32,000 nucleotides of DNA from Anabaena azotica FACHB-119 (GCF_014697625.1 NZ_JACJSG010000005.1:68561-100560), one strand, 5' to 3'; positions 9,027 to 28,873 are shown, counted from the first letter of the stretch. Numbers and translations are program-made. Notes: generated by a model not told the origin, from the sequence alone.

Positions 9027-9068
9027 TATCATCAGGCTGAAATCGTTAGAGGATGTTTGGAAACCACT

Positions 9069-9096: not shown

Positions 9097-9104
9097 TAAC
9101 TCAT

Positions 9105-9257
9105 CTTATATCAAGTTCGGCTAATTACTTATAATATGGTTGTTTTGGTCGGTAATTGGTAATAGCTAATAGGTAATTGTTGTGAGCCATTACCGATTAC
9201 CGATTACCTATTACCAGCCCCCAATATATGATAAGTATTTAAGCGGATATGATATTA
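9105..9257. mobile_element. MITE-like palindromic element, family A, copy 2 (153 bp)
   Basis: 152/153 identical to 6459-6611 and in the same orientation. Flanking sequence is unrelated on both sides. Confidence 0.85.
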
Positions 9258-9259
9258 AT

Positions 9260-9301
9260 CATCTGCGTTTATCTGCGTTTATCTGCGTTCAATTTTTTTC
9301 T
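9260..9301. repeat. Tandem 10-mer (C)ATCTGCGTTT x3 ending in ATCTGCGTTCAATTTTTTTCT
   Basis: Direct reading. Related to 3845-3910. Confidence 0.85.
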
Positions 9302-9430
9302 AAATCTACTGCCACATTTTAGTCTAGACAAGCTACTACATTATTTTTCGGTGCAATTTCATAGAGAATTGGTATAAGATTTACATGAAAATCCCATTGT
9401 TCTGTTGTAGTTGACTAGGTAACGCACAAT

Positions 9431-12867: not shown

Positions 12868-12990
12868 TACTTAACTCTTAACTCCAGTATTTCTTATATT
12901 TTGCCCCACTCTCTTGTTGCCAAAATAACAGCCCCAAAACCTACAGCATATTGTGGGTAAATGAGGTACAAGCGTAAAACCCAAAACCAT

Positions 12991-13018
12991 GTAGAGACGT
13001 TACATGTAACGTCTCTAC
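12991..13018. repeat. Perfect 28-nt palindrome GTAGAGACGTTACATGTAACGTCTCTAC
   Basis: Read directly. It lies in the 288-nt gap between the TpsA-like gene and the CHAT gene and shares the stem family of 9069-9096. Confidence 0.9.
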
Positions 13019-13155
13019 AGTATGTCACGAATAGCGAAACTGCTGTAACTATTTCGTAGGGTGGGGAGTGCATCGCCACCTGCTGATATCATATCCGCTT
13101 ACAATCATCAAACCTATACTTTAAAAGCCTTCCACCCTATTCCCTTTCCCCTGCT

Positions 13156-15516
13156 TTAACGCCAGCCACAATCAACTGGGGATGGGTAAGCAATTAATTC
13201 TACATTCCCCTGTTTATTAATAATCCAACCTTGAGCTTCCACAATGCGCTCAGGAGTTGTGGAAACTGAGTTTTCAGCTAATTGTCTTGGCAGTTGCACA
13301 TCTCTCCAAACTTCATTGCTATCAAGGGGTTCATAAGGATTAGGTGGCAAACCACCACGCCCAGTAGCGATAAAAGAACTTTGGCTTTGCCGACTACCAG
13401 GGGTGCAAGCGGTGGAAATTTTTTGCGAAGCATCTAATACATTAATCGGCTGTTCGACTAACCCGTTTCTCACATCTACATCCGGTGTGTTAATTTGCAC
13501 TAAGCCATTAAATGCGGAATCTCTACCAGTAGCAGTGATATCGCTTTCTGAGGTAGGCTCATTACGATACTCAATACCAAAAACGTTGAGAGCGTCAATT
13601 TCTACATTACCACCACGGAAATCTTCTGAATTAGCACTAATATCACTATTTTCCCCAGGAACAGCAATAATAAAACCATTTCTGGCATTAATACTAATGT
13701 CACCACCAGTAACATTATTGCCAGTTGCGTTAGTGGTAATAGCGCTTTGATTGCGTAAGATTAACAAGGGTGTCTTCACAAAAATATACCCACCACCACC
13801 TGTAGTGTCAGCAGTGATTTTGCCTCTGTTGTTCAGATTGATAGAGCCAGCATCTACTGTCAAGTTACCTGCTCTGCCAAAGCCTTGATTACTGACGCTA
13901 ATTTCCGCACCATCTTGAACAGTTAATCTTCCTGTAATAATCGTCAAGTCACCAGCACTACCAGAACCTTCGCTAGCAGCGAACAAACTACTAGGAGCAA
14001 TTTGACCTTTCTTATCTATACCAGTGCCACTCACAACTACAGAATCAGGGGCATCTATATATAAAGTCCCCGCCTCACCCAGGCTACCAGCTATTGCTGC
14101 AACTGACATCCTGGCACCATCTTTAACAACTAGACGCTGAGTTTTGATGATTATGTCTCCTCCCCGGCCTGTCACAGAAACGCCATCTTGTCCTCTACTC
14201 TGAGAAATCAGTCCACTGGGAAAATCAAGATTATCTTTGACTGTGAAACCAATTGCTTCTATAGATTCATCGGCATTTACGCTCAATCTTCCCCCATCGC
14301 CAGCACTAAGAGTAGAAGTTGTCATTTGCCCTCCGTCACGGAGAATTACTTTCTTAGTATCAATGTGCATTTCTCCAGCATCACCAGCATCCTTTTGTGT
14401 ACTAAAACTGCGAACCCTTAAGCTAGAATATAAATTTCCGCCTCCTACTATCTCTACAAATTCATCGGCATCAACAGTTAAACTCCCTCCCTGTCCAACG
14501 CCTTCAGTAGAAGCTTCTATCATTCCACCTTCATAAACTAACAACCGCTTCGTTTCAATTATTATGTTCCCTCCTACTTTACTGCTATTAGTTAAGGTAA
14601 ATAGTCTAGAGTCACCATTGACTTCTACAGATTCAGATCCTTTGATTATTAAAGGTTGACCTGAGTTATTTCCATTGGTTGTCCCTCCTACTTGTGAAAC
14701 ATTTTTGATTACAATATTCCTGCCATAAAACTGAATAGCTCCACTGCCTTCACCCTCTGTAAAAATATAGCTGTTTTTTATTTCAATATCTTGGAAGTTC
14801 TGTGAGCTAGCATACCCTAATGCCCAGCCTTGGGTCAGTGGAGTTAGTGTAACTAAACTATTGTTAGTAACACTTCCTAGCTCGATTCGACCTGCTGGTG
14901 CTTCTATTTCACTAGCATTTATGAATATATCACCACCTAAAAAAGCTAAGGTTTCACGAGGTGAAACACTGAGTGTAGACTCATTAATTTGAATTGGTTT
15001 AGCAGTTTGCCCAAATTGCAATCCCACAGGAACCTTTTCAGTCAGTAGAGGTGGTTTCTGGGTATCAGTAGCACTAAATTCAGTTCCATCAGCAAAAAGC
15101 ATTTTACTAGCTGTGCTGGCTATAAAAGAACCATTAATATTTAATGAAGCATTTACACCGAAAATAATGCCGTTGGGATTAATCAAAAACAGGTTGGCAG
15201 AACCTGTTGTTTGAAGTGAACCATTTATGTGAGAGCTTAAATTACCTGTGACACGGCTAATAATATTCTTAATATTTGAATTGTTTTCAAAGGAAGCTGT
15301 TCCTTTTTCAGGTACAGAAAATTCTTGAAAACTATGAAACAGGTTACTTCCTACTTGTTTACCATCAGTAATAGTGAAGTTTAGTTTATCAGGACTTTCA
15401 ACCTTAGTGCCTAAAGTATTGTCGGCAGTAATTTGTGCGTAGGTTATATCATTGGTTTTTACAAAGCATATAAATATCAAACTTAATGCCGAAAGATGCA
15501 AAATTTGCTTTTCCAT
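13156..15516 (-). CDS. Two-partner-secretion exoprotein (filamentous hemagglutinin N-terminal TPS domain plus beta-helix repeats), TpsA-like
   Basis: Signal peptide (LHLSALSLIFICFVKTNDITYA). TPS domain motifs NLFHSFQEFSV and LFLINPNGIIFG. Repetitive GG-I-I / L-V-DGA beta-helix-like segments follow. The conserved-looking C-terminus is RIVEAQGWIINKQGNVELIAYPSPVDCGWR. Confidence 0.88.
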   Translation of the reverse strand: MEKQILHLSALSLIFICFVKTNDITYAQITADNTLGTKVESPDKLNFTITDGKQVGSNLFHSFQEFSVPEKGTASFENNSNIKNIISRVTGNLSSHINGSLQTTGSANLFLINPNGIIFGVNASLNINGSFIASTASKMLFADGTEFSATDTQKPPLLTEKVPVGLQFGQTAKPIQINESTLSVSPRETLAFLGGDIFINASEIEAPAGRIELGSVTNNSLVTLTPLTQGWALGYASSQNFQDIEIKNSYIFTEGEGSGAIQFYGRNIVIKNVSQVGGTTNGNNSGQPLIIKGSESVEVNGDSRLFTLTNSSKVGGNIIIETKRLLVYEGGMIEASTEGVGQGGSLTVDADEFVEIVGGGNLYSSLRVRSFSTQKDAGDAGEMHIDTKKVILRDGGQMTTSTLSAGDGGRLSVNADESIEAIGFTVKDNLDFPSGLISQSRGQDGVSVTGRGGDIIIKTQRLVVKDGARMSVAAIAGSLGEAGTLYIDAPDSVVVSGTGIDKKGQIAPSSLFAASEGSGSAGDLTIITGRLTVQDGAEISVSNQGFGRAGNLTVDAGSINLNNRGKITADTTGGGGYIFVKTPLLILRNQSAITTNATGNNVTGGDISINARNGFIIAVPGENSDISANSEDFRGGNVEIDALNVFGIEYRNEPTSESDITATGRDSAFNGLVQINTPDVDVRNGLVEQPINVLDASQKISTACTPGSRQSQSSFIATGRGGLPPNPYEPLDSNEVWRDVQLPRQLAENSVSTTPERIVEAQGWIINKQGNVELIAYPSPVDCGWR

Positions 15517-15711
15517 AAAAATTTAAATTTATATAGTCATACTTTTAGAAAAGTGCGTACACACTACTTATATAAAACAATAAGTAAGGTTAATCAATAA
15601 ATTAACCTCACTTCGCTCCAAGCATGACTTTATATAGTAATGTAATTATAATTTAGTCAGAAATCTCATAAGAATATTAAAGCATATCAAATATTTGTTT
15701 CGCAAGTGGCG

Positions 15712-15756
15712 TTGGGCATTGTCCACCATATCATGGTTTTGGTGGGCAATGCCCAC
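15712..15756. repeat. Imperfect 17-bp-stem hairpin built from GGGCAATGCCC-type palindromes
   Basis: TTGGGCATTGTCCACCA (15712-15728) faces TGGTGGGCAATGCCCAC (15740-15756), matching 15 of 17 by eye. Confidence 0.7.
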
Positions 15757-15816
15757 CCTACGGATACTACATATACTGAGATGTTTTCATAAATCAAATC
15801 GGATTCCTATATATAT

Positions 15817-15939
15817 AGGACTTACGCAAGTGTCATCATCACACTAACTGTAGGGTGCGTCAGACCCAATAATCTCGTACAAATTAAGAAATATTCCACA
15901 TCTGACGCACCCTACTATTGTTCCAGTTGCGTAAGTCCT
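15817..15939 (+). mobile_element. MITE-like element, family B, copy 2 (123 bp; best-preserved copy)
   Basis: Outer inverted repeat AGGACTTACGCAAGTG / CAGTTGCGTAAGTCCT. Perfect inner 15-bp inverted repeat GTAGGGTGCGTCAGA / TCTGACGCACCCTAC. Confidence 0.85.
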
Positions 15940-16079
15940 GATATGGTTAGGCAAAACCACTTAAAAATCTATTTTGCCTATTAATTCCTAATTGCTCCTA
16001 GTTTTAGGAGCAATAGCTTTGTCAAAAATAGAGGTAATCTAGCTTTTGCTTAAATAGTTTGAGACTACCAGATTTTTGA

Positions 16080-16502
16080 CTACTGGGAAAAACCGAAAAA
16101 CCGCCATAAAGTAGATAAGAAACTATAAATTCTTGTGAGAAATCTTTCATATTTGTTTGTTAGAGTTGCTCCTGGCGAACAGGTTCCACTCAGGCAATAT
16201 CCAATTTCACCATTACTTAAGGGGCATTTTAGCTGACCCTTGGGGCATATCTCTGAGAAACTGGATACTGGTTCTTCCCTATTAACATCCATTAAAAGTT
16301 TAGCGTTAAGTTCTTTTCCTATATTGAATAAATTTTCACTACTTGCCTTTATAGATGAGGCTGGAAGGAGGATTTCTGAGTCAGTCAATTTTGACGTAAC
16401 CTGTGGCATTGGTGTTTGAACTTCTTCAGCCATAGCCATAGAGCTAAAGAAGAACATAAATGAAAAGGTGAAGGAGATTACAAAAGCAAGTGTACGTTTC
16501 AT
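16080..16502 (-). CDS. Small secreted hypothetical protein (140 aa) with a Cys-containing C-terminal half
   Basis: Clear signal peptide (MKRTLAFVISFTFSFMFFFSSMAMA-EE). The mature part contains CPKGQLKCPLSNGEIGYCLSGTC. I recognise no family, and the local sequence looks AT-rich. Coding status rests only on ORF length and the signal peptide. Confidence 0.5.
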   Translation of the reverse strand: MKRTLAFVISFTFSFMFFFSSMAMAEEVQTPMPQVTSKLTDSEILLPASSIKASSENLFNIGKELNAKLLMDVNREEPVSSFSEICPKGQLKCPLSNGEIGYCLSGTCSPGATLTNKYERFLTRIYSFLSTLWRFFGFSQ

Positions 16503-16710
16503 TGTTTATTTGCTCGTTATAGATAATTGGGTTGATACTGCAAAAGGCAAAAATTCTATAAAATTGACACTTCCGTGGTTTCAAACAGTCGTATTTTTTC
16601 TTCTTTGAGATTAATTTCTAGATACTAGGAAATATCTCATTTTTGGTTTTAAGCATTATCGTAATATGTAGATTTAATCCTCCTTGGTACTTGGCTTTAC
16701 TTGCTGTTTA

Positions 16711-16783
16711 CAGTATGTTGGATAGTTCAACTGAATAGTTGAGTTAAATTCAGGACTTTCAAAATTCAGGTAAATTCAGGTAA
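16711..16783 (+). repeat. Repeat C, copy 1: conserved ~75-nt element with palindrome TCAACT-GAAT-AGTTGA, upstream of the HTH-ATPase gene
   Basis: CAGTATGTTGGATAGTTCAACTGAATAGTTGAGTTAAATTCAGGA... aligns with 20461-20541, with 40 of the first 50 positions identical by eye. It ends in tandem AAATTCAGGT repeats. Confidence 0.75.
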
Positions 16784-16856
16784 AATAAGGATAATTTAGA
16801 TTCATACTTCTTGCTCAACCTTTAAGATTTTTAAATTAATTTAAAATGTACTTCTT

Positions 16857-18260
16857 ATGAACTTCAACTTGGATGAAGCAATAAAAACTGTAAATCAAGT
16901 AGTGTTTATCAAAGAAAAGAGAAAGTTAACAGATGTAGAAATTTTAGTTTTCAAAGGAGCTTGGCATAGACAAGAGTACGATCAGATTGCTGCCCAGAAT
17001 CAATACACAACAAGTTACATAAGTCAAGATGTTGCTCCTAAACTTTGGAAGCTTTTGACAGACTCTTTAGGAGAGAAAGTCAAAAAAAGCAACTTTAAAG
17101 AAGCCTTAAAGCGCTATTGGGAACAACAACAATTAGGGAATATTTTACTAGAACAAGCCCCAATTAACTTTGAAAGTCCTGAAATAATTTACAATGTCAC
17201 AGCTTATGAACAAAGTTTGGCTATTCAACAAAAGCCATCACTTCTAACTCCTGATATCTATGTAGAGCGCCCACCCATTGAATCTATTTGCTATAAAACC
17301 CTGTTGCAACCGGGATCGCTGATTCGCCTGAAAGCTCCCAGGTTGATGGGTAAAACATCTTTAATGACTAGGGTGCTGGCGCAGGTGGCTGAAGATGGCT
17401 ACCGGACTGCAAGTTTAAGCTTTGGGCTGGCAGATAGAAGAACCCACTTCACCAACCTCAATAAATTCCTGCGTTGGTTTTGCTTGAATCTCAGTCGAGA
17501 GCTAAAATTGCCGAGTGAGTTGGATGAATACTGGGATGAGGAAGGGATAGGAGCTAAGGTCAGTTGTACAACCTACTTGGAAGAATATCTGCTGGCGCAA
17601 GCAGACAGTCCTTTGGTTTTATGCTTAGATGATGTAGATTTGCTTTTTCCCTATCCAGAAATTTACGAAGACTTTTTTGGGCTACTGCGATCGTGGTATG
17701 AGAAAGCAAGAAGCCGCCAAACTTGGAAAAAATTGCGGCTGGTACTTGTCTACGGGACAGATGTTTACATCGAACTGAATATTAATCAATCTCCCTTTAA
17801 CGTGGGATTGCCCATTGAGTTACCAGATTTCACCCACTCTCAGCTACAAGACTTGGCTCTACAACATGGCGTAGAGGTTGATACAGATGAAGTTGAAATA
17901 TTAATGAACTTAGTGGGGGGACATCCTTATCTTTTAGAATTGACTTTAGCTCATCTTAAAAGTTATCCAGGCATTACCCTTAAGGAAATTTTGGCAACGG
18001 CGACGACAGAAGCGGGAATTTATGCTCACCATCTGCGGGATTTCTGGTTAAATCTGCAAGAGCATCCAGATTTGGCTTTGGCTTTTAAAAAAGTAGTTAC
18101 TTCTAATAGTCCTGTACAGCTAGAACCTATGCAGGCTTACCAGTTACAGAGTATGGGGTTAGTTAAACTTACTGGCAATGAGGTAGAGCCTCGGTGTTAT
18201 TTGTATCGCCAATATTTCTCTGAGCGCTTGGGGAATAGGCTTGAGACTGTCAAAAGCTAA
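16857..18260 (+). CDS. Cytoplasmic AAA-like (PF14516-type) NTPase with an N-terminal HTH-like helical domain
   Basis: The N-terminal ~90 aa (LTDVEILVFKGAWHRQEYDQIAAQNQYTTSYISQDVAPKLWKLLTDSLGEKVKKSNFKEAL) matches a module I have seen at N-termini of cyanobacterial AAA-like/WD40 proteins. Then IYVERPPIE, LIRLKAPRLMGKTSL (Walker A), LVLCLDDVDLL (Walker B) and SPFNVGLPIELPDF follow. This protein is a paralogue of the ATPase part of 6708-9026. Confidence 0.8.
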   Translation: MNFNLDEAIKTVNQVVFIKEKRKLTDVEILVFKGAWHRQEYDQIAAQNQYTTSYISQDVAPKLWKLLTDSLGEKVKKSNFKEALKRYWEQQQLGNILLEQAPINFESPEIIYNVTAYEQSLAIQQKPSLLTPDIYVERPPIESICYKTLLQPGSLIRLKAPRLMGKTSLMTRVLAQVAEDGYRTASLSFGLADRRTHFTNLNKFLRWFCLNLSRELKLPSELDEYWDEEGIGAKVSCTTYLEEYLLAQADSPLVLCLDDVDLLFPYPEIYEDFFGLLRSWYEKARSRQTWKKLRLVLVYGTDVYIELNINQSPFNVGLPIELPDFTHSQLQDLALQHGVEVDTDEVEILMNLVGGHPYLLELTLAHLKSYPGITLKEILATATTEAGIYAHHLRDFWLNLQEHPDLALAFKKVVTSNSPVQLEPMQAYQLQSMGLVKLTGNEVEPRCYLYRQYFSERLGNRLETVKS

Positions 18261-18304
18261 TTTTTGATTTGTGCGATCGCCTAATAATGTTTCCATATAA
18301 CTAT

Positions 18305-18334
18305 CATGGTGCGTTACGATGGTAACGCACCATG
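18305..18334. repeat. Perfect 13-bp-stem hairpin CATGGTGCGTTAC-GATG-GTAACGCACCATG between convergent genes (possible bidirectional terminator or RNA end stabiliser)
   Basis: Read directly. It sits in the 97-nt gap between the stops at 18260 (+) and 18358 (-). There is no flanking T-run on either strand, so it is not a canonical intrinsic terminator. Confidence 0.6.
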
Positions 18335-18357
18335 TATGCTAAAAGATAAGCGATCGC

Positions 18358-20259
18358 CTACACTGGATAGCTAGTTATGTCAACCAAACGTAAGCCTTGC
18401 TGGCTGACTTCCTTCCATTTGGCAGAGAAGCCCTTCCAGTCGCTATTCCACAAATAATATCCATCTTTACCAGCTCGGAACGCTCCAATAAAGAACCGTT
18501 TACCGTTCTGTACATAGGAATCTAGGCTAATTAGACGTAAGCCTTGCTTACTCAATTCCTCCCACTTAGCGATGAAAGCAGCCCATTCATAGGAATATAG
18601 AGCATAAGCATCAGTGCCAGAACCAAACACCCCATTAAATAACTGCTTACCACCCTGAGAATAGGTCGATACGTCAATCAATCGCAGTCCCTTCTTGCTT
18701 TCTGCCTCCCACTTAGCAGTGAATGCTTGCCAGTCCATACCAACCCACAGAGCATAAGGGTAGGTTCCAGCACGGAATACACCAGCATAGAGTTGTTTGC
18801 CTCCCTCAAAGTAGGTTTGCAAGTTAATCAAGCGGAGTCCCTTTTTGCTCAGTTCTTCCCACTTAGCCTTGAAATTGTCCCACTCTACGCCAACCCAGAG
18901 AGCGTGAGCATCTGTGCCGGCGCGGAAAACTCCAGAGTATAGCCGTTTATTTCCATCAACAAAAGTTTCTAGATCCACAAGCCGGAGTCCAGCATTAGAT
19001 AGTTCTTTCCACTTAACCAAGAAGCTATCCCAATCTCCTACCCAAAAAGCGTGGGGGTCATTTCCAGCACGGAAAACACCAACATAATTTCTGGGACTGA
19101 CAGGTGCGGTGGGGATCAGACCAGGAGCGTCTACCACCCATTGATATTTAACGGTGTATATCCCTCCGTGTCCTGTGAAGGTTAATGTACCAGGAGATGA
19201 AAGGCTGTTCCACCCTGATCTGTTAAGGTAAGCTGTCCCTTCTGCCGTTGGTAGATTAATGAGGGCAGCTCTGGGCGCAAAGATATCATCTTTAGCTAAA
19301 TCGGTGAGCCACTGTACAAACTTGTCCAGAACCCAGCCAAGGAATTTTCCTAAAACTTTGCCAATGATAGCCCCTATTGCACCACCTATGCCCCCGCCAG
19401 CAGCAGTCAGAGCATCTTCAATCCTGCGTTTGATTTCAGGGCCAGCTTTTTCCCAAGCATCTGTGAGAAAATCGGCAAACCCTCCCCAATCAATTTCGGC
19501 AAGATAGAGGATAGCTGCATAGTTTTTAGGCCAAAAAGAGGTCTTAGTGGTGTCAAATTGGTAGAACGTCTTACCTGGGAGGGGATAACTGACGACCGGA
19601 TTATCCTTTTCATCAAAATCCCCTTCTTTGTCTTTTACATCAAAAGGTTTGATTTTAAAGACATTCCCAGTTTCGTCTATTACCATGCCTCCGATTTGGA
19701 TTTCGTCATCCCCTGCTTCTGATCCAAATAAGCCGTCGGTTTCGTCAACGCACTTAACTTCGGTAATGTGAAATCCAACTGATTTGACTTTCGCCTGAGA
19801 TGTCCCGCCACTAAGTGCTTGTATGGCGATAGGTTCTGCAACTGCGGAAACAATATTTTGAGTTAGAGGCAGCGTCTCAATCTGTATGACTGCATCAAGA
19901 AGCTTGGCGGAATTGAGCTGTAATGCAGGTAGACGGGTAGCAGTAAAACCTTGTTGAGCGTAGTCGTCAAGACTAAGAGAAGCGTAACGCCCAAAAGATA
20001 ATTGTCGCTCGGCAGTTGGCTGGGCAGCAATAGCTCTGGCTATTGATTGATACCCCAGTCTTTTTTCTGGTTTGAGTGTCGCAATTGCCAATCGGAAACT
20101 TTCTTCGACACTATCCTGTGCAAATGGCTTATCTTGTCTGTTTGCAGCTGCCAAGAAGGAGTATTGCAGCCCTTGCAACACATCTTCAGCGATTTTTTGT
20201 AATTCGCTATCGCTAAAACTATCAACGGATTGGCGCTCTATCGTGTTAGCAATTACCAT
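18358..20259 (-). CDS. Hypothetical 633-aa cytoplasmic protein: unknown N-terminal region, acidic beta-rich middle, glycine-zipper amphipathic segment, five ~48-aa C-terminal tandem repeats
   Basis: No signal peptide. Middle region: VKCVDETDGLFGSEAGDDEIQIGG. Glycine-zipper segment: AAGGGIGGAIGAIIGKVLGKFLGWVL. Five repeats follow the pattern Y-GVFRAG-D--ALWVG-W--F-AKWEELSKKGLRL--L-TY--GGK-L. Confidence 0.8.
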   Translation of the reverse strand: MVIANTIERQSVDSFSDSELQKIAEDVLQGLQYSFLAAANRQDKPFAQDSVEESFRLAIATLKPEKRLGYQSIARAIAAQPTAERQLSFGRYASLSLDDYAQQGFTATRLPALQLNSAKLLDAVIQIETLPLTQNIVSAVAEPIAIQALSGGTSQAKVKSVGFHITEVKCVDETDGLFGSEAGDDEIQIGGMVIDETGNVFKIKPFDVKDKEGDFDEKDNPVVSYPLPGKTFYQFDTTKTSFWPKNYAAILYLAEIDWGGFADFLTDAWEKAGPEIKRRIEDALTAAGGGIGGAIGAIIGKVLGKFLGWVLDKFVQWLTDLAKDDIFAPRAALINLPTAEGTAYLNRSGWNSLSSPGTLTFTGHGGIYTVKYQWVVDAPGLIPTAPVSPRNYVGVFRAGNDPHAFWVGDWDSFLVKWKELSNAGLRLVDLETFVDGNKRLYSGVFRAGTDAHALWVGVEWDNFKAKWEELSKKGLRLINLQTYFEGGKQLYAGVFRAGTYPYALWVGMDWQAFTAKWEAESKKGLRLIDVSTYSQGGKQLFNGVFGSGTDAYALYSYEWAAFIAKWEELSKQGLRLISLDSYVQNGKRFFIGAFRAGKDGYYLWNSDWKGFSAKWKEVSQQGLRLVDITSYPV

Positions 20260-20460
20260 TGTCTGTAATATTCCTTTGTTTAATGGTTGTTTGAGAAAAT
20301 ATTGTTAAGATTTAGTCTGTTGCAGCAAAAACTTAGCTTGCTTGCCGAAATACGGTAGCGAGACTTAAGAATGGCGATCGCCTGTCTGCAATTAGTGCTA
20401 AACTTAGATGCGATCGCTGTTCGGCTTGGGTTTAAGCTTTTCCTTGACCGCTCATAATGT

Positions 20461-20541
20461 CAGTATGTCTGATAACTCAATTCAATAGTTGAGTCCAATT
20501 CAGGAGTATCAAAAAAAAATAAATTAGTTAAATTCAGGTAA
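20461..20541 (+). repeat. Repeat C, copy 2 (same orientation as copy 1)
   Basis: CAGTATGTCTGATAACTCAATTCAATAGTTGAGTCCAATTCAGGA...AAATTCAGGTAA is homologous to 16711-16783. It lies about 200 nt upstream of the start of the 633-aa gene, on the opposite strand. Confidence 0.75.
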
Positions 20542-20587
20542 TTTCTGGCTAATACCATTTTACGGAATGCCTGATACAGATACATGA

Positions 20588-20770
20588 GTAGGGGCGCACA
20601 GCACAGCTTCCCTACAGCCAATTCGTCCCACCGTAGGCGATCGCTCTGGTAAAATTATCGAAGCCCAAGGCTGGCAAGTAGACCGCAATGGTAACTTGGT
20701 TCTTGTTGCACACACACCTAATCTAACTCCACACAACTCAATGCTTAATTCGTCGGCTTGTGCAACCTTG
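20588..20770 (+). pseudogene. Orphan fragment resembling the C-terminus of a TpsA/hemagglutinin-like protein
   Basis: My + strand translation gives ...RPTVGDRSGKIIEAQGWQVDRNGNLVLVAHTPNLTPHNSMLNSSACATLGG. This parallels the C-terminus ERIVEAQGWIINKQGNVELIAYPSPVDCGWR of the 13156-15516 gene. An in-frame TGA lies at 20585-20587, and there is no start codon or upstream TPS domain. Confidence 0.4.
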
Positions 20771-20804
20771 GGGGGGGTAGAGAGGAGAATTGTTAGCAAC
20801 TTAT

Positions 20805-22244
20805 TTAATTTGCAGAAGATTCAGGTGATTGCACTTCTTGCGGGTTTTGGTCTGATGATGTAGGTTGTTCTCTAGTAGGTTGAGAGGTTTCGCCATTGTT
20901 AGTGACTGAAGGGGCTGAGTTAAATTCCCTTCTGCGTCTTCTATTGTTTGTTGGAGGCGAGGAGGAATTCTCAGTCGATGATGAAGTTGATTCTGTGGTT
21001 GATGGAGTAGGGATGTTTTCGTTAGTTCCGGTGAGTGACCTTCTTCTGCGGTTAGTTACTTGAGTCGAAGTATTGCTAGATTCAGCATTTCTTTGCTCTT
21101 CTTGTCTTTTTTTCTCTGCTTGTTCCACTTGACGAGAACGTTGCGAATCCCTGATTAATACATAATCAGCCGCAATAGTAACTCCCCGCCTACCAGCTGC
21201 ACTTTCCTTTAGTTTCCATTTTCGCGCTTGTGCCAAATGTTCTGCGTCTAATCTACCATTACCGCTAGAACTCACCAATCTAACATCAATAACGTTTCCC
21301 TGTGCATCTGTATCAACTTTTACTACTATTCTCCCTTTAACCCCTCTCTTTCTCGCCCATTCTGGATAACTACTATCACACTGACGACAAGCAGCACGAC
21401 CCTCAAGTTTGTCACTATTAAATCTTAAGTTAGGAGTTGTTGGTGCTGTTGCGATTCGTGAACCACTACCACTACCGTTACCACTACCGTTACCACTACC
21501 AGTACCGCTACCAGTACCGCTACCAGTACCGCTACCGCTACCAGTACCGCTACCACCGCCACCATTACCAGATATTCCTGTTGAGTTCGATGTTACTCCA
21601 CCATTATTTCTATTCGTCGTACCTTGAGAAGGTTGTGAAACCCCTTGATTTGTTCGATTATTTCTAATTCCTGCTAGCAATTTATCAACATTGGTACTTG
21701 CTTGTGGATTAGCTTGTATCGTTGTGCTGTTTGTAGGTGATGTTTGAGTTAGTATATTTTGGGGTTCAGGCGCTTTAGCTTGGGGCTGAGGTTCTGATGT
21801 TCTTTGTGAGGGTAAAGGTTGAAGTGGCTCTATTTTTGATGGTGGTTTTTCGACAACGCTAGATGGTTGAGTAGCAACTGGTGGATTTTGTGGTGATGGT
21901 GCTGGAATTTGAGATACAGCAGCAGGGCTTTTGATACTCGACCCACCACCACCGCCGCCACCAGAGGAGCTATTTGAAGTCGTTAAAATCTGAGATTTTT
22001 CAGGAATCTCAGGTTTTGGTGGTTCTACTTCTTGTGTAGGTTCCGGTTCTGAGGGAGTTTCTACAAGAGTTACTTCTAGGGGTTCTTCTGCAAATTCCGG
22101 CACTTTGAACAGTAGATTACCAACGCCAGAGACTAGCAAACCTATATGCAGAGCTAACGAGCCTAGCAAGCTATAAACTAAAAAAGTTTTGATAGTCTTT
22201 AATTCTTGTTCTCGCTGCCCTACAGCAGTGCCGGAAAAGCTCAT
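20805..22244 (-). CDS. tonB: TonB-family energy transducer with an unusually long low-complexity linker and a C-terminal tail beyond the TonB domain
   Basis: N-terminal TM (FLVYSLLGSLALHIGLLVSGVG), a Pro/Glu-rich segment (EPEPTQEVEPPKPEIPEK), poly-Gly, and a (GSGT)n stretch. The TonB C-terminal domain context is YPEWARKRGVKGRIVVKVDTDAQGNVIDVRLVSSSGN. About 115 further residues are rich in S/T/N/R/E. Divergent exbB-exbD lies next door. Confidence 0.8.
   Translation of the reverse strand: MSFSGTAVGQREQELKTIKTFLVYSLLGSLALHIGLLVSGVGNLLFKVPEFAEEPLEVTLVETPSEPEPTQEVEPPKPEIPEKSQILTTSNSSSGGGGGGGSSIKSPAAVSQIPAPSPQNPPVATQPSSVVEKPPSKIEPLQPLPSQRTSEPQPQAKAPEPQNILTQTSPTNSTTIQANPQASTNVDKLLAGIRNNRTNQGVSQPSQGTTNRNNGGVTSNSTGISGNGGGGSGTGSGSGTGSGTGSGTGSGNGSGNGSGSGSRIATAPTTPNLRFNSDKLEGRAACRQCDSSYPEWARKRGVKGRIVVKVDTDAQGNVIDVRLVSSSGNGRLDAEHLAQARKWKLKESAAGRRGVTIAADYVLIRDSQRSRQVEQAEKKRQEEQRNAESSNTSTQVTNRRRRSLTGTNENIPTPSTTESTSSSTENSSSPPTNNRRRRREFNSAPSVTNNGETSQPTREQPTSSDQNPQEVQSPESSAN
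21463..21569. repeat. Hexanucleotide/dodecanucleotide microsatellite-like tract (CCAGTACCGCTA and variants) encoding the GSGTGSGN linker of TonB
   Basis: Read directly. It encodes GNGGGGSGTGSGSGTGSGTGSGTGSGNGSGNGSGSGS on the - strand and generates two spurious + strand ORFs. Confidence 0.9.
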
Positions 22245-22359
22245 ATTTATTGCTATGTATTCTCAGTAACTTTGAGAGGATATCAAGAAGTATATGCAAT
22301 TGTCAATCATCTATTTGATATGTATTTGCTTAAGTCAATAGCGATCGCATCTAAAATAA

Positions 22360-22520
22360 CGTGAGTTCGACAAGCGTTGTTTTGACCTCACCCCCAACCC
22401 CTCTCCTACGAGGAGAGGGGAGTAAGACGGTGTTTTTTCGCCTCCTTCTCCTGACGGAGACGCTACGCGAAGGCCTTTTAGGAGAGGGAGGTTGGGAGGG
22501 AGAGGTTCATCGAACTCACG
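22360..22520. repeat. 161-bp highly structured palindromic element (MITE-like) in the tonB-exbB divergent intergenic region
   Basis: Ends CGTGAGTTCGA (22360-22370) and TCGAACTCACG (22510-22520) are perfectly inverted. The inner arms ACCTCACCCCCAACCCCTCTCCT and AGGAGAGGGAGGTTGGGAGGGAGAGGT also pair. A nested hairpin CCTCTCCT-ACG-AGGAGAGG is present. Confidence 0.8.
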
Positions 22521-22659
22521 TTAAAAGACTACCAATTTCCCAGGCTTTTACCCTAATCGTCACCTCATCAAAAGATGACTTTTGAGCTAAGATTAGGAAT
22601 TGATTGACAAAGATTTTCATTTATTCTAGAGTGTTTTGATATCTTATCTCATTTAACTT

Positions 22660-22781
22660 GGGACTTACGCAAGTGTCATATTCAAACTAAATGTGGGGTG
22701 CATCAGCCCCAATAATTTCGTACAAATTAGAGGATTTTTCACATCTGACGCACCCTACCCAGTGCCAGTTGCGTAAGTCTT
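22660..22781 (+). mobile_element. MITE-like element, family B, copy 3
   Basis: GGGACTTACGCAAGTG...TCTGACGCACCCTAC...CAGTTGCGTAAGTCTT is collinear with copy 2 and roughly four-fifths identical by eye. Confidence 0.8.
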
Positions 22782-22964
22782 GTAACTGAATAAGACACAA
22801 ACCAAAATGACTTAACCAAATGATTCATTGAGGCTAGGTAGAGGGCAAAGGAAGTCTAGCTGGCATTTCCATAACCGTATTCCTGACTCCAAACATGGAT
22901 CATTCTGCTTTGTATTGTCAGTTTTGAGTAAGTTAATTTCATCTAAAAGCTTGAGAAGTGGTAC

Positions 22965-23618
22965 ATGGACATCAAAAATTTGTTCATAGCTGGTGGTGTA
23001 GTGATGTGGCCACTGCTGGCTGCATCAGTAGTTGCGATCGCGTTAATTGCTGAACGCATCAGATTTTGGTTGAAAGTGAGTAGCCGTCAGCAAATAGTGG
23101 TCAGGGATGTATTAAAGCTATATCGCCAGGGGAATGTAGTTAGTACAATTGATGCCTTGCGAAAGAATGCAGATTTACCAATTGCCAGGATTTTTTTAAC
23201 AGCCTTGGAATTAGAAGAACCAAACCCAGAAGAATTTCGTTTGGCGTTGGAGAGTGAAGCACAGGCGGAAATTCCCCTACTTAAAAGGTTTACCACCATT
23301 TTCGACACAATTATTTCTCTTGCTCCTTTGCTGGGGTTGCTGGGAACAGTGTTAGGTTTAATCACTTCTTTTGCCTCTTTGAATCTTGGTGATGTTGGGG
23401 GAACAAAAACGGCAGGAGTAACTAGCGGTATTAGTGAAGCTTTAGTTTCCACAGCCGCAGGTTTAATTGTGGCAATTTTCACGCTCTTGTTCTCCAATAC
23501 GTTCCGAGGACTTTACCAACGACAAATGGCTTTGATTCAGGAATACGGCGGACAGTTAGAACTGTTGTACCGTCGCCGCTACGAACAGGGAGAAAAAGCG
23601 TATGCGTCTACAAGATGA
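22965..23618 (+). CDS. exbB: ExbB (MotA/TolQ/ExbB proton-channel family)
   Basis: Three TM helices and a conserved region (LLGLLGTVLGLITSF, GISEALVSTAAGLIVAI). ExbD follows directly. Confidence 0.88.
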   Translation: MDIKNLFIAGGVVMWPLLAASVVAIALIAERIRFWLKVSSRQQIVVRDVLKLYRQGNVVSTIDALRKNADLPIARIFLTALELEEPNPEEFRLALESEAQAEIPLLKRFTTIFDTIISLAPLLGLLGTVLGLITSFASLNLGDVGGTKTAGVTSGISEALVSTAAGLIVAIFTLLFSNTFRGLYQRQMALIQEYGGQLELLYRRRYEQGEKAYASTR

Positions 23619-24000
23619 GCCAGATATCCCAGCACAAATTAACATTGTGCCGATGATTGATGTGATATTTGCGATTTTGACATTTTTTATCATGTCAACT
23701 TTGTTTTTAACTCGTTCCGAGGGTTTACCAGTTAACTTACCCAAAGCCGCAACGGGGAAAACAGACCGTCCAGCACAGGTAACAGTGACGATTAATAAGA
23801 CTGGAGAAATATTTCTGAACAAGGAAGCGATTAGTTTAGAACAATTGGAAGCCGGAGTCAGACAAAAGATAGAACCCCAACAACAGTTACTGGTGGTACT
23901 CAATGCTGATGAGGGAGTTAATCACGGTAAAGTTGTGGCGGTGATGGATAAAGTTCGGCGGGTTGAGGGAGCAAAGTTAGGTATAGCTACGCGCAAATAG
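23602..24000 (+). CDS. exbD: ExbD (biopolymer transport protein ExbD/TolR family)
   Basis: INIVPMIDVIFAILTFFIMS TM, then LPVNLPKA and VVLNADEGVNHGKVVAVMDKVR. It overlaps exbB by 17 nt. Confidence 0.88.
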   Translation: MRLQDEPDIPAQINIVPMIDVIFAILTFFIMSTLFLTRSEGLPVNLPKAATGKTDRPAQVTVTINKTGEIFLNKEAISLEQLEAGVRQKIEPQQQLLVVLNADEGVNHGKVVAVMDKVRRVEGAKLGIATRK

Positions 24001-24013
24001 TAAAGATAGGGGA

Positions 24014-24150
24014 CAGGTTACAGGTTACAGGTGAGTCCAGTCCTGTAGGTGGGTTTCCCGCCATAGGGAACTGGCGAACCCGGAGGGTGACAGAGTTAAA
24101 AGTCTTGGCTATTGCTAAATAGCAGGTTACAGGTGACAGGTTACAGGTGA
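24014..24150. repeat. Two short STRR blocks (CAGGTTA/CAGGTGA; 24014-24034 and 24123-24150) flanking a ~90-nt unique core
   Basis: Read directly, immediately downstream of the exbD stop codon. Confidence 0.85.
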
Positions 24151-24234
24151 CAAGCACAGCATTACCTAGAAACAGAAAGACTCTGAAAATATAACTACGG
24201 TCAGCAAAAATACCGTTAGAAAAGATTACATAAA

Positions 24235-26358
24235 ATGTTTTTTACGGCTAAAACTCAGCTTGGAATTCCTTTAGACTGGCAGAAACAATTAAAAAGATTG
24301 ATTCCGTTTCTACTCAGTATCATATTTACGTTGGTAGTAAGTAGCCAAAGTATCAGCTCTGCACCCAAAAATACAGAAATTCTTTGGGACACCTACGGTA
24401 TACCTCATATTTATGGTAATAACGTCCAAGGTGCTTTTCAAGCATTTGGTTGGACACAAATGCAAAGTCATGGTAACTTACTTTTGCGCCTCTACGGACA
24501 AGCAAGAGGAAGAGCAGCCGAATACTGGGGAGAAGAATATCTAGATTCAGACAAATGGGTACTGTCAATGGGTGTACCCAAAAGAGCGATCGCTTGGTAT
24601 AAAGCACAAAGTGGTGCATTTCGCAACTATATCAATGCTTTTACCGATGGAATTAATACCTATGCCAAACAGCATCCTGATTTAATTGATCCTGAAGTCA
24701 AAGTAGTATTACCTGTCACGCCGGAAGATGTGTTGAGCCATTTGCAAAGGGTACTGCTGTTTACCTTTGTAGTTGATTCTGCAAGAGTGGCACAGATGAG
24801 CCAGACAAATTCTGCTCCAGGTTCTAATGCTTGGGCGATCGCACCAAAAAGGTCGGCCAGTGGTAAAGCAATGCTGTTAGCTAACCCTCATCTACCTTGG
24901 GGAGATTTATTCTTATGGTACGAAGCGCAAATTACCGCACCGGGAATTGATGCTTATGGGGCGACATTGGTAGGTATTCCCGTATTAGCGATCGCCTTCA
25001 ACGATAACTTAGGTTGGTCTCACACTGTCAACACTCATGATGGCTGGGATGCTTACGAACTCAAATTACAAAAAGACGGCTATCTTTTTGATGGCAAAGT
25101 TCGCCCCTTTGAAACAGCAAGCTTCCTCTTAAAGGTAAAACAGAAAAATGGCTCTTTACGCGAACAAATATTCACAGTTAAAAGTTCTGTTCATGGGCCT
25201 GTAGTCAGCCAGAAAGATGGTAAAGCCTTAGCAGTGCGTGTCGTTGGTCAAGACAGTTCTGGTATTTTACAACAATGGTGGGATATGGCCAGAGCCAAAA
25301 ATCTCAACCAATTTCAGAGGGCTTTGCAAACTCTGCAACTGCCTATGTTTACTGTCATGTATGCTGACCGTGAGGGGCATATTATGCACCTGTTCAACGG
25401 CCAGGTTCCCGTGCATCAACAAGGAGACTTTGCATACTGGCAAAGTATTGTCCCTGGTGATACATCCAAAACTTTATGGACAAAAATTCACCCCTATCAA
25501 GATTTACCCAAAGTAATTGATCCTGCTAGTGGTTGGTTGCAAAATGCTAATGACCCACCTTGGACTACAACATTTCCCACCGCCATCAAAGCTGAAAATT
25601 ACCCCCCCTATATGGCTCCACGGGGGCCAATAGATTTCCGGGCGCAGAATTCTGCCAAAATGTTAGCCGGGGATGACAGTATTTCCTTTGAGGAAATGAT
25701 TGCCTACAAGCATTCTACCCAGATGGAGTTAGCACAAAGAATTCTAGATGATTTGATTCCTGCTGCACAAAAACAAGGAGATGAATTAGCACGTCGCGCC
25801 GCCGATGTTCTAGCCGCATGGGATCGACAGGCAAATGCAAATAGCAGAGGTGCTGTACTGTTTAGCTTCTGGGTTAACAATATAGATTTAGATAAAGTGT
25901 TTAGCACTCCTTGGCAAGAAAAATCACCAATCACCACACCCGACGGTTTAGCCGAGCCTCAAAGTGCAGTCAAAACCTTATCAGATGTCGCAGCAAAAGT
26001 AGAGAAGACCTATGGAGCCTTAGATGTAGCTTGGGGTGATGTGTTCCGACTCCGGTATGGCGGTTTAGATTTGCCAGCCAATGGTGGCGAAGGAGATAAA
26101 GGTATTTTCCGCGTCGTAACTTTTGCCCCGACAGATAATGGACGCTTTCAAGCAGTTCATGGTGACTCTTACGTTGCTGCTGTGGAGTTTTCCCAGCCAG
26201 TAAAAGCAAAGGCTCTCACCAGCTATGGTAATGCTACTCAACCTAATTCATCCCATGTTGGCGACCAACTGCAACTTTTTGTGCGTCAACAGTTACGTCC
26301 AGTTTGGCGAACCAGACAGGAGATTACAGCCCATTTGGAGGAACGCACAGTCCTTTAA
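24235..26358 (+). CDS. Periplasmic Ntn-hydrolase of the penicillin-acylase family, PvdQ/AHL-acylase-like
   Basis: Signal peptide (LIPFLLSIIFTLVVSSQSISSA). Alpha-subunit start ILWDTYGIPHIYG. Autoprocessing and nucleophile context APGSNAWAIAPKRSASGKAMLLANPHLPW matches the G-SN motif of PvdQ-type acylases. Confidence 0.85.
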   Translation: MFFTAKTQLGIPLDWQKQLKRLIPFLLSIIFTLVVSSQSISSAPKNTEILWDTYGIPHIYGNNVQGAFQAFGWTQMQSHGNLLLRLYGQARGRAAEYWGEEYLDSDKWVLSMGVPKRAIAWYKAQSGAFRNYINAFTDGINTYAKQHPDLIDPEVKVVLPVTPEDVLSHLQRVLLFTFVVDSARVAQMSQTNSAPGSNAWAIAPKRSASGKAMLLANPHLPWGDLFLWYEAQITAPGIDAYGATLVGIPVLAIAFNDNLGWSHTVNTHDGWDAYELKLQKDGYLFDGKVRPFETASFLLKVKQKNGSLREQIFTVKSSVHGPVVSQKDGKALAVRVVGQDSSGILQQWWDMARAKNLNQFQRALQTLQLPMFTVMYADREGHIMHLFNGQVPVHQQGDFAYWQSIVPGDTSKTLWTKIHPYQDLPKVIDPASGWLQNANDPPWTTTFPTAIKAENYPPYMAPRGPIDFRAQNSAKMLAGDDSISFEEMIAYKHSTQMELAQRILDDLIPAAQKQGDELARRAADVLAAWDRQANANSRGAVLFSFWVNNIDLDKVFSTPWQEKSPITTPDGLAEPQSAVKTLSDVAAKVEKTYGALDVAWGDVFRLRYGGLDLPANGGEGDKGIFRVVTFAPTDNGRFQAVHGDSYVAAVEFSQPVKAKALTSYGNATQPNSSHVGDQLQLFVRQQLRPVWRTRQEITAHLEERTVL

Positions 26359-26360
26359 AT

Positions 26361-26385
26361 CAGTTATCAGTTATCAGTTATCAGT
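26361..26385. repeat. Short STRR block (CAGTTAT x3 plus a partial unit)
   Basis: Read directly, 2 nt after the acylase stop codon. Confidence 0.9.
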
Positions 26386-26474
26386 CCTAACGGCGTATGG
26401 TGGGGGATAAAGAAGCGCCACCCTACGCTTTCCACCAATTGATGTGGTGTTTCCCCAAGGATTTAACTGATAAC

Positions 26475-26653
26475 GGGACTTAAACATTCTTGAGGCATAA
26501 ACAAGGCTCAAACCTATACAGGGCAAGGGAAATACACCGAAGGCTCAAAAATGCCTCAAACCCAGATATATTAAGAAACAGGTTAAAACGATGTCAAAGT
26601 CTTTTGGTGTATACGTTTGATGTTTTTTTCAGCCTATTTTTTGTCTAAGTCCC
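26475..26653. mobile_element. Possible 179-bp MITE-like insertion with GGGACTTAAAC / GTCTAAGTCCC termini, flanked on both sides by STRR-like ATAAC(TG) sequence
   Basis: The termini are 10/11 inverted. The left flank is AACTGATAAC and the right flank is AATAACTGTTCACTG. I saw no second copy in the window, so the call is tentative. Confidence 0.4.
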
Positions 26654-26654
26654 A

Positions 26655-26700
26655 ATAACTGTTCACTGATAACTGTTCACTGATAACTGTTCACTGATAA
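26655..26700. repeat. 14-bp tandem repeat ATAACTGTTCACTG x3 (alternating STRR-like heptamers) about 95 nt upstream of the first permease gene
   Basis: Read directly. Confidence 0.9.
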
Positions 26701-26792
26701 AAGAGTACGCACAGGAGAAAATTGATAATTCAGCACTGCGGACAGTCTCAATTAGAAGGCAGAAAATATTTTTTTGATGCAGCACAAAGACA

Positions 26793-27818
26793 ATGGCAAC
26801 TACAACCTTACCTAAAGGTATAAAAAAAACACAAATACCACATTTATTAGGTATTATTCTGGGACTATTTATCCTGCTAATCTGCTTAGTGTATAGTGTT
26901 ACTCTGGGTGCAGCGCAAATACCTCTGGAAGAGATTCTGGCATCGTTTGTCACCTTTGACGGTTCCTATAATCACTTAGTAATTCAGACGGTGAGATTAC
27001 CGCGATCGCTCATTGCTGTTATTGTAGGGGCAGCCTTGGCAGTTGCTGGGGCTTTAATGCAAGGTTTGACACGCAACCCCCTAGCAGATCCAGGTATTTT
27101 AGGCATTGAGTCAGGAGCAGCGCTGGCTGTAGTTGCCACAATTTTTGTCTTTGGCAGTTCTAGTGTGAGTGTTTTAACCATTGTCGCCTTGTTGGGAGCC
27201 ACAGCCACAGCAATTTTAGTCTATGGTCTTGGTTGTTTGGGAAGAGGAGGAGCTACCCCACTAAATCTGACAGTGGCTGGTGCAGCGCTCACAGCTATGG
27301 TTTCTTCCCTCACGACGGCTATCCTCATTGTCAGTCAAAGAACATTAGATGAAATTAGATTTTGGTTAGCTGGTTCATTGTCTGGCCGCGATATCAATAT
27401 CCTCTTACAAGTATTGCCTTTCATTGTGATGGGATTAGTAGTTGCTTTTACCCTGGGTAAGCAAATTACCACCATGAGTCTCGGTGAAGATGTGGCACAA
27501 AGCTTAGGTCAACAAACAGCTTGGGTCAAAATTATCACTGCTATCAGCGTAGTTTTACTGGCGGGAGGTTCAGTAGCCCTAGCCGGGCCAATTGGTTTTG
27601 TTGGTTTAGTAGTGCCTCACATGGTGAGATTTTTTGTTAAAACCGATTATCGTTTGATTTTGCCTTATTCGGCAATTTTAGGGGCAATTTTATTGCTAAT
27701 TGCAGATATTGTTGCCCGTGTCTCATTCAAACCCCATGAATTGCCTGTTGGTGTGATGACAGCAATAGTTGGCGCTCCTTTTTTTGTCTACTTGGCTAAA
27801 TCAAAGGTAAAAAAATGA
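26793..27818 (+). CDS. FecCD-family iron-siderophore ABC transporter permease 1
   Basis: LRLPRSLIAVIVGAALAVAGALMQGLTRNPLADPGILGI is the FecCD signature region. About 9-10 TM helices. Confidence 0.9.
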   Translation: MATTTLPKGIKKTQIPHLLGIILGLFILLICLVYSVTLGAAQIPLEEILASFVTFDGSYNHLVIQTVRLPRSLIAVIVGAALAVAGALMQGLTRNPLADPGILGIESGAALAVVATIFVFGSSSVSVLTIVALLGATATAILVYGLGCLGRGGATPLNLTVAGAALTAMVSSLTTAILIVSQRTLDEIRFWLAGSLSGRDINILLQVLPFIVMGLVVAFTLGKQITTMSLGEDVAQSLGQQTAWVKIITAISVVLLAGGSVALAGPIGFVGLVVPHMVRFFVKTDYRLILPYSAILGAILLLIADIVARVSFKPHELPVGVMTAIVGAPFFVYLAKSKVKK

Positions 27819-28855: not shown

Positions 28856-28873
28856 ACCAGGAAAATATCACGT

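Follow-up and report, generated by a model that had tools for sequence, protein, structure and literature searches.

A gene for a 467-amino-acid (aa) nucleoside triphosphatase (NTPase) and a gene for a 633-aa protein ending in BTRD1 repeats are linked beyond chance and form a jointly inherited two-gene unit in a 32,000-nucleotide (nt) stretch of the genome of Anabaena azotica FACHB-119, the whole of which we call the window. The NTPase gene (16857-18260, plus strand) and the 633-aa gene (18358-20259, minus strand) converge on a 97-nt spacer, an orientation that a first-pass annotation of the same DNA had described and that the coordinates and strands of the open reading frames (ORFs) confirm. 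The NTPase joins a helix-turn-helix (HTH) domain to an AAA_35 domain, and the 633-aa protein joins an N-terminal module of ~390 aa to five BTRD1 repeats. We propose, as something short of an even bet, that the pair is a regulator-plus-output arrangement, in which the HTH-AAA_35 switch would control a BTRD1-type output, and not a self-contained sensor and executioner of the STAND type (signal-transduction ATPases with numerous domains). The 467-aa protein is 100% identical, over 100% of its length, to P0277, an 'AAA-like domain-containing protein' of Anabaena azotica, which places the window in a heterocystous cyanobacterium.

Joint inheritance of the two genes

The pair recurs in two metagenomic loci (L010 and L011), where the two genes are again convergent. 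Positions 465-4340 of L011 match window positions 20563-16704 as a single high-scoring segment pair of 3.86 kb at 89% identity. A ~90-nt element brackets the genes in two copies, and the match runs exactly as far as their outer borders; the flanks beyond are unrelated to those of the window. Because the match is single and bounded and its flanks are unrelated, the two-gene unit exists in at least two genomic contexts. In L010 the unit adjoins a ResT/TelK telomere-resolvase catalytic domain (1-1461, E=8.7e-28), which suggests a linear plasmid or prophage context for that copy.

More distant relatives are also neighbours, and AAA_35 genes lie within 3 kb of 633-aa orthologues in three different arrangements. 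For instance, in L004 and L006 a 633-aa orthologue (70-73% identity) has an AAA_35 gene immediately upstream in divergent orientation, the product of which carries a weak Xre-type HTH. The outer flanks of these two loci differ from each other, with no CHASE2 gene to be found over 8-10 kb. The 633-aa orthologue of L003 has an HTH-TIR-AAA_35 gene 2.8 kb upstream. The NTPase domains that neighbour 633-aa orthologues are 42-54% identical to that of the window, compared with 25% for the CHASE2 and GAF paralogues, and by this measure they belong to the same subfamily. L003 also carries, over positions 1-7193, three switch proteins in a row (Pkinase-AAA_16, GAF-AAA_35 and HTH-TIR-AAA_35), with an RTX (HemolysinCabind) protein between these and the 633-aa orthologue.

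Nostoc sp. CENA67 (L045) offers a further comparison. This locus is syntenic with window positions 6708-18234 and comprises CHASE2-AAA_35, DUF928, CHAT and TPS genes, a small ORF and an NTPase orthologue of 83% identity. After the NTPase gene stands a different BTRD1 gene on the same strand, encoding five BTRD1 repeats and a beta-lactamase domain, and these repeats are only 23-24% identical to those of the window. BTRD1 is rare, occurring on none of 72,556 plasmids although 38 of those plasmids carry AAA_35 genes, so chance can hardly account for the presence of two BTRD1 architectures next to orthologous NTPases. In Streptomyces, a plasmid carries a standalone gene for the N-terminal module 100 nt behind a gene for an 899-aa STAND-like NTPase with MalT-like TPR repeats, on the same strand. 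A plasmid-borne origin was considered and rejected, since this is the only plasmid with a module homologue and no plasmid carries BTRD1.

The first-pass annotation had suggested a test of whether homologues of the two genes co-occur across genomes. They do, in that homologues are neighbours elsewhere (L010/L011, L004 and L006), AAA_35 genes accompany 633-aa orthologues in three arrangements and the unit recurs at 89% identity; the NTPase is, however, not dedicated to a 633-aa partner.

One competing explanation has no functional link between the two genes. The NTPase would belong solely to a CHASE2-AAA_35/DUF928/CHAT/TPS cluster, and the 633-aa gene would be horizontally moving cargo at the cluster edge (a secreted toxin, an adhesin or a cell-surface protein), with dispersed repeats favoring recombination. 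In the window the cluster occupies 6708-15516 and contains the AAA_35-CHASE2 gene (6708-9026, plus strand; 772 aa) as its first gene, followed by DUF928, a TPR-CHAT gene (897 aa) and a gene for a TPS-domain haemagglutinin-like protein (786 aa). Anabaena, Nostoc CENA67 and Planktothrix, three genomes from two orders, all have the short HTH-AAA_35 gene together with CHASE2-AAA_35, DUF928 and CHAT; in Anabaena and Nostoc it borders the four-gene cluster. Plasmid p1 of Planktothrix agardhii has the CHASE2/DUF928/CHAT part, with no TPS gene within the fetched locus, and there the short NTPase gene overlaps the start of the CHASE2-AAA_35 gene (TGATG) and is translationally coupled to it. The 633-aa gene is not a conserved part of this cluster: it is replaced in Nostoc, where homology to the window ends right after the NTPase gene, and absent in Planktothrix. 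Its family is rare with varied neighbors, the bracketing element comes from a dispersed family, and the right flank of the window is an ordinary TonB/ExbBD/FecCD/FhuF iron-uptake cluster. All this would fit unlinked genes. Against it stand the joint travel of the two genes away from the CHASE2 cluster in L010/L011, the two unrelated BTRD1 architectures that adjoin orthologous NTPases in spite of the rarity of BTRD1, and the divergent pairs of L004 and L006, with their different outer flanks and no CHASE2 gene nearby. We therefore regard the absence of a functional link as rather unlikely.

The CHASE2 fusion bears on the NTPase in another way. It belongs to the same Pfam family (AAA_35, E=2.3e-34) and lies 7.8 kb from the 467-aa gene, and the first-pass annotation had placed both in one NTPase family, as two paralogous switches. 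The shared PF14516 domain bears out the family assignment, but at 25% identity over 251 aa the fusion is only a distant paralogue. Nor are the two probably independent switches, given how the short form accompanies the CHASE2 cluster in the three genomes above; they may work as a pair.

Architecture of the NTPase and the 633-aa protein

The NTPase consists of an HTH_VMAP-M9 domain (aa ~1-95) and an AAA_35 P-loop NTPase domain (PF14516, aa 129-456) that matches with E=1.8e-142 and 474.5 bits, against a cut-off of 27. Walker A (APRLMGKT, aa 160-167, nt 17334-17357) and Walker B (LVLCLDDVD, aa 253-261, nt 17613-17639) are both intact. HTH_VMAP-M9 (PF26355) and PF14516 are precomputed matches on the identical P0277, and the HTH match is also found on the 95%-identical L011 orthologue. 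Searches of the N-terminus against Pfam, NCBIfam and PADLOC gave nothing usable, the local Pfam copy being one without the PF26355 model. The first-pass calls of a probable DNA-binding N-terminal domain and an AAA-like NTPase were thus right. Matches to AAA_16 and AAA_22 were weak and below Pfam thresholds, and a PDB sequence search returned no solved relative. Proteins of this architecture, ~465 aa long and 63-83% identical, occur throughout the Nostocales and beyond (4755 matches at E<=1e-20).

The C-terminal 245 residues of the 633-aa protein (aa 389-633; 18361-19095, minus strand) form five BTRD1 repeats of ~49 aa (PF17660; 89.8 bits against a cut-off of 23), and the DNA shows a matching periodicity of 147-150 nt. 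These repeats are what the first-pass annotation had seen as a repeat domain of ligand-binding type. In the AlphaFold model each repeat consists of three strands plus a helix, and Foldseek matches it to the N-domain of a polyglycine hydrolase (7tpu_A, probability 1.00), a five-repeat barrel of unknown function (PMC9912923). The full 633-aa architecture was found in only ~13 proteins, at 49-95% identity. An exact look-up of the 633-aa protein showed it not to be on record, and a PDB sequence search was empty.

Elsewhere, our homologue search found BTRD1 attached to M23, astacin, S8 and beta-lactamase-fold hydrolases, and the Nostoc neighbor is of this type. One may expect from such fusions that the 633-aa protein has a housekeeping role, as an enzyme of the BTRD1/polyglycine-hydrolase type that acts on the cell wall or processes peptides. 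It has no catalytic domain (no PF00144 and no Pfam or NCBIfam match outside BTRD1), its ~13 family members are patchily distributed, and one copy is disrupted by an IS630-type element. We consider the enzyme explanation very improbable. The disrupted copy is that of Heteroscytonema crispum UTEX LB 1556 (L002, 786-2157), in which only the first ~146 residues of a 633-aa homologue remain, at 59% identity, ahead of IS630-type transposase ORFs (HTH_32, DDE_3), an insertion sequence having broken the gene.

The N-terminal ~390 residues (19096-20259, minus strand) have no match in Pfam, NCBIfam, PADLOC or PDB. An exhaustive profile search with this module retrieved 1054 cluster representatives at E<=1e-3, mostly standalone proteins of 350-450 aa, and by these searches the module defines a large, unannotated family that neither Pfam nor NCBIfam contains. 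Some relatives carry fused Ricin-B, B-lectin, tachylectin or LGFP repeats in place of BTRD1; a PKD match was weak and sub-threshold. The 633-aa protein itself has no N-terminal signal peptide, but Sec- or TAT-like ones were seen in roughly 12-18 of the 78 aligned relatives; its first-pass description as cytoplasmic is only partly borne out. A scan of the genome collection with the N-terminal alignment found two loci only, one of them the IS630-disrupted fragment. A first metagenome scan found nothing, and a word-indexed homologue search with a broad alignment added few new proteins. One protein, P0232, is not on record.

The structure of the module, predicted from the 78-sequence alignment (pLDDT 83.6, pTM 0.84), comprises a six-helix domain (aa 18-129) and a C2-like beta-sandwich (aa 157-255 and 326-378) into which a helical hairpin is inserted (aa 256-325). 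The two long helices of the hairpin (aa 261-286 and 293-322) carry a run of repeated GxxxG motifs through G288, G292, G296, G300, G304 and G308 (19336-19398, minus strand), so the glycine zipper reported in the first-pass annotation is real. No stretch of the 633-aa protein is more hydrophobic than the second helix, and the equivalent region likewise leads in hydrophobicity in most of the 78 aligned relatives. Matches of module relatives to Gly-zipper Pfam families were weak and sub-threshold. Near the top, both Foldseek lists consist in large part of C2 membrane-binding domains (cPLA2, otoferlin and perforin C2). The 633-aa module has no Pfam C2 match, and a Foldseek search against the viral library gave nothing. 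Most of the residues that the family conserves (C170, T174, D185, E255, D257, D324, D325, G366 and Y368) are acidic or glycine, and E255, D257 and D324-D325 border the hairpin in sequence. The predicted model is consistent with a soluble protein that may insert its hairpin into a membrane and be targeted there by its binding domain.

The module has a history of its own within the unit. Compared with L011 in 150-nt windows, the DNA is 89-98% identical except in a tract at 19104-20153, encoding aa 36-385 of the 633-aa protein, where identity falls to 69-80%. The rate of synonymous substitution (dS) is 0.65 in this tract (with a nonsynonymous rate, dN, of 0.20 and dN/dS of 0.30), compared with 0.17-0.18 in the NTPase gene and the BTRD1 repeats; the BTRD1 barrel remains 98% and the NTPase 95% identical at the amino-acid level. 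From this difference in dS we infer that recombination with a divergent allele probably exchanged the N-terminal module and left the BTRD1 barrel and the NTPase in place. Positive selection on the module in situ was rejected because dS is raised as much as dN, which recombination fits better.

Regulatory link or direct activation

How would the two proteins act together? In the regulator-plus-output arrangement, the HTH-AAA_35 protein would be an ATP-driven DNA-binding switch, possibly allied to the membrane-bound CHASE2-AAA_35 paralogue as a sensor. Acting through the shared bracketing element, it would control two promoters, its own and the one of the adjacent BTRD1-type gene. The 633-aa protein would be the variable output, a soluble protein whose BTRD1 barrel finds the target and whose glycine-zipper hairpin may enter a membrane, either that of a competitor or the cell's own; its N-terminal module would be exchanged between lineages by recombination.

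The candidate operator is the ~90-nt element. Its left copy (16711-16800, plus strand) lies 57-146 nt upstream of the NTPase start codon, contains a palindromic core (TCAACTgaatAGTTGA), three AATTCAGG repeats and a sigma-70-like site (16758-16786), and is also kept in front of the NTPase orthologues of L011 and L045. The right copy (20461-20553, plus strand, antisense to the gene) lies 202-294 nt upstream of the 633-aa gene. The two copies, in direct orientation, can be aligned over ~90 nt, with 81% identity across 54 nt. The window has no further copy, and the number expected by chance is 0.01. The first-pass annotation had described a shared element of ~75 nt bracketing both genes, and our analysis confirms it at this somewhat greater length. 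L045 has a diverged copy at the matching relative position and in the matching orientation, upstream of the start of its BTRD1 and beta-lactamase gene. Between themselves the window's two copies share ~75-81% identity, yet they are 95-96% identical to their L011 counterparts, and are therefore old. We considered a cassette-specific att-like site and rejected it on these identities and because related copies are dispersed near unrelated genes. On metagenome contigs (L025, L030, L031, L034, L037-L039 and L041) the element family has the core CTCAATAGTTGAGTTAAATTCAGGA ... AATTCAGGTAAATTCAGG, and its copies there are sometimes paired, a few hundred bases to 5 kb apart.

A number of observations weigh against a regulator-plus-output arrangement. 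The first concern the element: it is a member of a dispersed intergenic repeat family also found near unrelated genes, and in several metagenomic loci its copies lie near genes for double-glycine leader peptides and C39-type transporters with no AAA_35 or BTRD1 nearby. It is absent from the L004, L006 and L003 arrangements, it may be a generic dispersed repeat or recombination hotspot, and its binding by the HTH domain is purely conjectural. Against a dedicated pair there are the wider conserved association of the short NTPase with CHASE2-AAA_35, DUF928 and CHAT in the three genomes above, a link that itself counts for the regulator-plus-output arrangement, and the ubiquity of the NTPase family in the Nostocales, compared with ~13 members of the 633-aa family. 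On the 38 plasmids that carry AAA_35 genes without BTRD1, the neighbors of HTH-AAA_35 genes are heterogeneous. In L007 and L008, from a Nostocales context, no AAA_35 gene lies near the 633-aa orthologue, which is accompanied only by a truncated WD40 gene and an ADYC gene. Homologues of ~50% identity have other neighbors, either an ECF (extracytoplasmic function) sigma factor, a Ser-Thr kinase and a 132/133-aa ORF, or ankyrin and GerE proteins. Only about eight independent contexts enter the comparison. As for the output, the hairpin of the 633-aa protein is only borderline hydrophobic (1.53 in a 19-residue Kyte-Doolittle window), and Foldseek gave no significant match for the module model, the best C2-type hit having E=0.03, a probability of <=0.77 and a TM-score, normalized to target length, of <=0.49.

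The ~50% homologues with the sigma factor lie on two metagenomic contigs (L005, 6116-12001, and L012, 5482-11345). There the homologue is the last gene of a same-strand series, after the ECF sigma factor, a ~925-aa Ser/Thr kinase with a weak TPR match and a 132/133-aa ORF without a family. The signaling partner is here a different one.

The main competing mechanism is direct activation, in which the HTH-AAA_35 protein would be a STAND-like sensor, for instance of foreign DNA, that oligomerizes and activates the 633-aa protein as a membrane-permeabilizing executioner, in an abortive-infection or programmed-death module. NTPases recur beside the module in two phyla, and a sister NTPase, that of L003, has a TIR domain between HTH and AAA_35. 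TIR domains are typical effector or signaling domains of conflict systems (PMC7159879). The hosts are multicellular (Nostocales and Streptomyces), the effector-like module has been swapped by recombination, and in most of the aligned relatives no segment is more hydrophobic than the glycine-zipper hairpin. These features would suit an executioner.

The NTPase itself suits a sensor less well. It stops 11 residues past the AAA_35 match, and no C-terminal sensor repeat family (TPR, WD40 or LRR) matched in it; the first-pass reading of a STAND-like NTPase is weakened accordingly, as such repeats are typical of STAND NTPases. The two genes are not co-transcribed because they are convergent. A shared adaptor of the EAD type (effector-associated domain) was sought by BLASTP of the two N-terminal domains and rejected, no alignment appearing at E<=100. 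The NTPase family is ubiquitous and its orthologues mostly lack a 633-aa partner, and the signal peptides and lectin fusions of module relatives point to action outside the cell and not to suicide from within. In PADLOC-DB 2.0 the NTPase has only a marginal match to PDC-S58 (E=0.0099, 12.8 bits, with no stretch passing alone) and the 633-aa protein has none. The proposal that the 633-aa protein is a defense or programmed-death effector beside a STAND-like NTPase hence finds no defense-family match above noise and no shared adaptor domain. Taking both sides into account, direct activation seems improbable to us, and a regulatory link looks likelier. A role of the pair in defense or cell death is only a hypothesis.

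Flanking features and relation to known systems

The spacer between the convergent stop codons contains a perfect hairpin (18305-18334) with a 13-bp stem and a 4-nt loop, as the first-pass annotation had noted. The spacer folds with -34.8 kcal/mol (z=-5.07), which 0 of 200 shuffles equal, and the stem is kept in L011. HIP1 octamers at 18273 and 18350 flank the hairpin and also pair. A simple terminator scan made no call at the hairpin, which has no T-run; it is probably a bidirectional transcript-end structure. An Rfam scan of 15400-21000 had no match, so neither the hairpin nor the ~90-nt element is a known RNA family.

To the right, positions 20805-31825 hold an ordinary iron/siderophore-uptake cluster comprising TonB, ExbB, ExbD, a penicillin-amidase-family acylase, two FecCD permeases, an ABC ATPase, a periplasmic binding protein and FhuF, and so no uniform defense island encloses the pair. 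Within the TonB gene, 12-nt tandem repeats (21450-21569) encode a Gly/Ser-rich region. Just beyond the right element copy, at ~20585-20790 (plus strand), a short remnant frame ('GKIIEAQGWQVDRNGNLVLVAHTP') resembles the C-terminus ('RIVEAQGWIINKQGNVELIAYP') of the TPS protein encoded at 13156-15516 and looks like a gene fragment left by rearrangement. To the left, the intergenic region that separates the TPS gene from a 140-aa ORF contains strong inverted repeats at 15713-15755 (16 nt at 94%) and 15817-15939 (a nested pair, 16 nt at 94% around 15 nt at 100%), with no Rfam match.

Several known systems resemble the pair in part. Like the NTP-dependent conflict systems of multicellular bacteria (Kaur, Burroughs, Iyer & Aravind 2020, PMC7159879; 2021, PMC8195603), it sets a P-loop switch with variable N-terminal domains beside a variable, recombining, effector-like gene in filamentous hosts. 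A further likeness is in names, as HTH_VMAP-M9 and the UniRef names of relatives refer to a 'vWA-MoxR associated protein'. The ORFs of the window include no MoxR AAA+/vWA gene pair and no VMAP-C or iSTAND core, as found in the ternary systems (PMC7159879), and the two proteins have no common adaptor domain of the kind that marks conflict systems with effector-associated domains (PMC7159879). The pair lacks two defining features of these systems, a vWA-MoxR pair and a shared EAD. AAA_35 is not named in the main text of PMC7159879 or PMC8195603.

In comparison with polyglycine hydrolases and BTRD1-peptidase fusions (PDB 7tpu; PMC9912923), the 633-aa protein has the five-repeat BTRD1 barrel in common but lacks a beta-lactamase-fold or peptidase domain, and carries BTRD1 C-terminally, on a non-enzymatic, membrane-active-looking module. 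With lectin-targeted and C2-bearing membrane-attack proteins (e.g., perforin C2, PDB 4y1s) it shares a GxxxG-rich hydrophobic hairpin and lectin-fused relatives, and its predicted beta-sandwich has a likeness to C2 domains that stays below significance; there is no significant sequence or structure match, and pore formation by the 633-aa protein is only putative. Glycine-zipper channel formers are a comparison class for the GxxxG-rich hairpin.

STAND-type transcription regulators such as MalT and AfsR combine an HTH with an oligomerizing P-loop NTPase and often lie beside their target genes. The 467-aa protein is likewise composed of an HTH and a P-loop NTPase, but its HTH is N-terminal and it has no TPR or sensor domain, the comparison being one of sequence only. 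The CHASE2-AAA_35/DUF928/CHAT/TPS cluster of cyanobacteria, itself uncharacterized, is another point of reference; the short HTH-AAA_35 gene of the window co-occurs with it and the 633-aa gene is not a conserved member.

Taken further, the module family might consist of conditionally membrane-inserting executioners with swappable binding domains, controlled by adjacent P-loop switches or kinases, and so represent a new class of regulated membrane-attack effectors of multicellular bacteria. We put this forward as a speculation that is unlikely to hold. If true, at least 1000 clusters (at 50% identity) of executioners would carry a releasable glycine-zipper hairpin in a C2-like sandwich, beside a six-helix domain, and be targeted via BTRD1, ricin, B-lectin, tachylectin or LGFP domains, and their adjacent controllers would be AAA_35 proteins in the Nostocales, STAND proteins with TPR in Streptomyces and an ECF sigma factor with a Ser-Thr kinase elsewhere.

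The NTPase family is annotated but uncharacterized, and that of the N-terminal module lacks annotation. Few uncharacterized switch proteins of filamentous cyanobacteria are as abundant as AAA_35 proteins, and we know of no AAA_35 protein with a known output. The locus studied here is a compact case, with a candidate target gene next door, a candidate operator at both promoters and a CHASE2-AAA_35 protein as a possible upstream sensor. The 633-aa protein gives BTRD1 a second context, which points to a targeting or binding role for these repeats. Its module exposes an unannotated family of >1000 clusters, in which the hairpin, the C2-like sandwich, the signal peptides and the lectin fusions make membrane attack testable.

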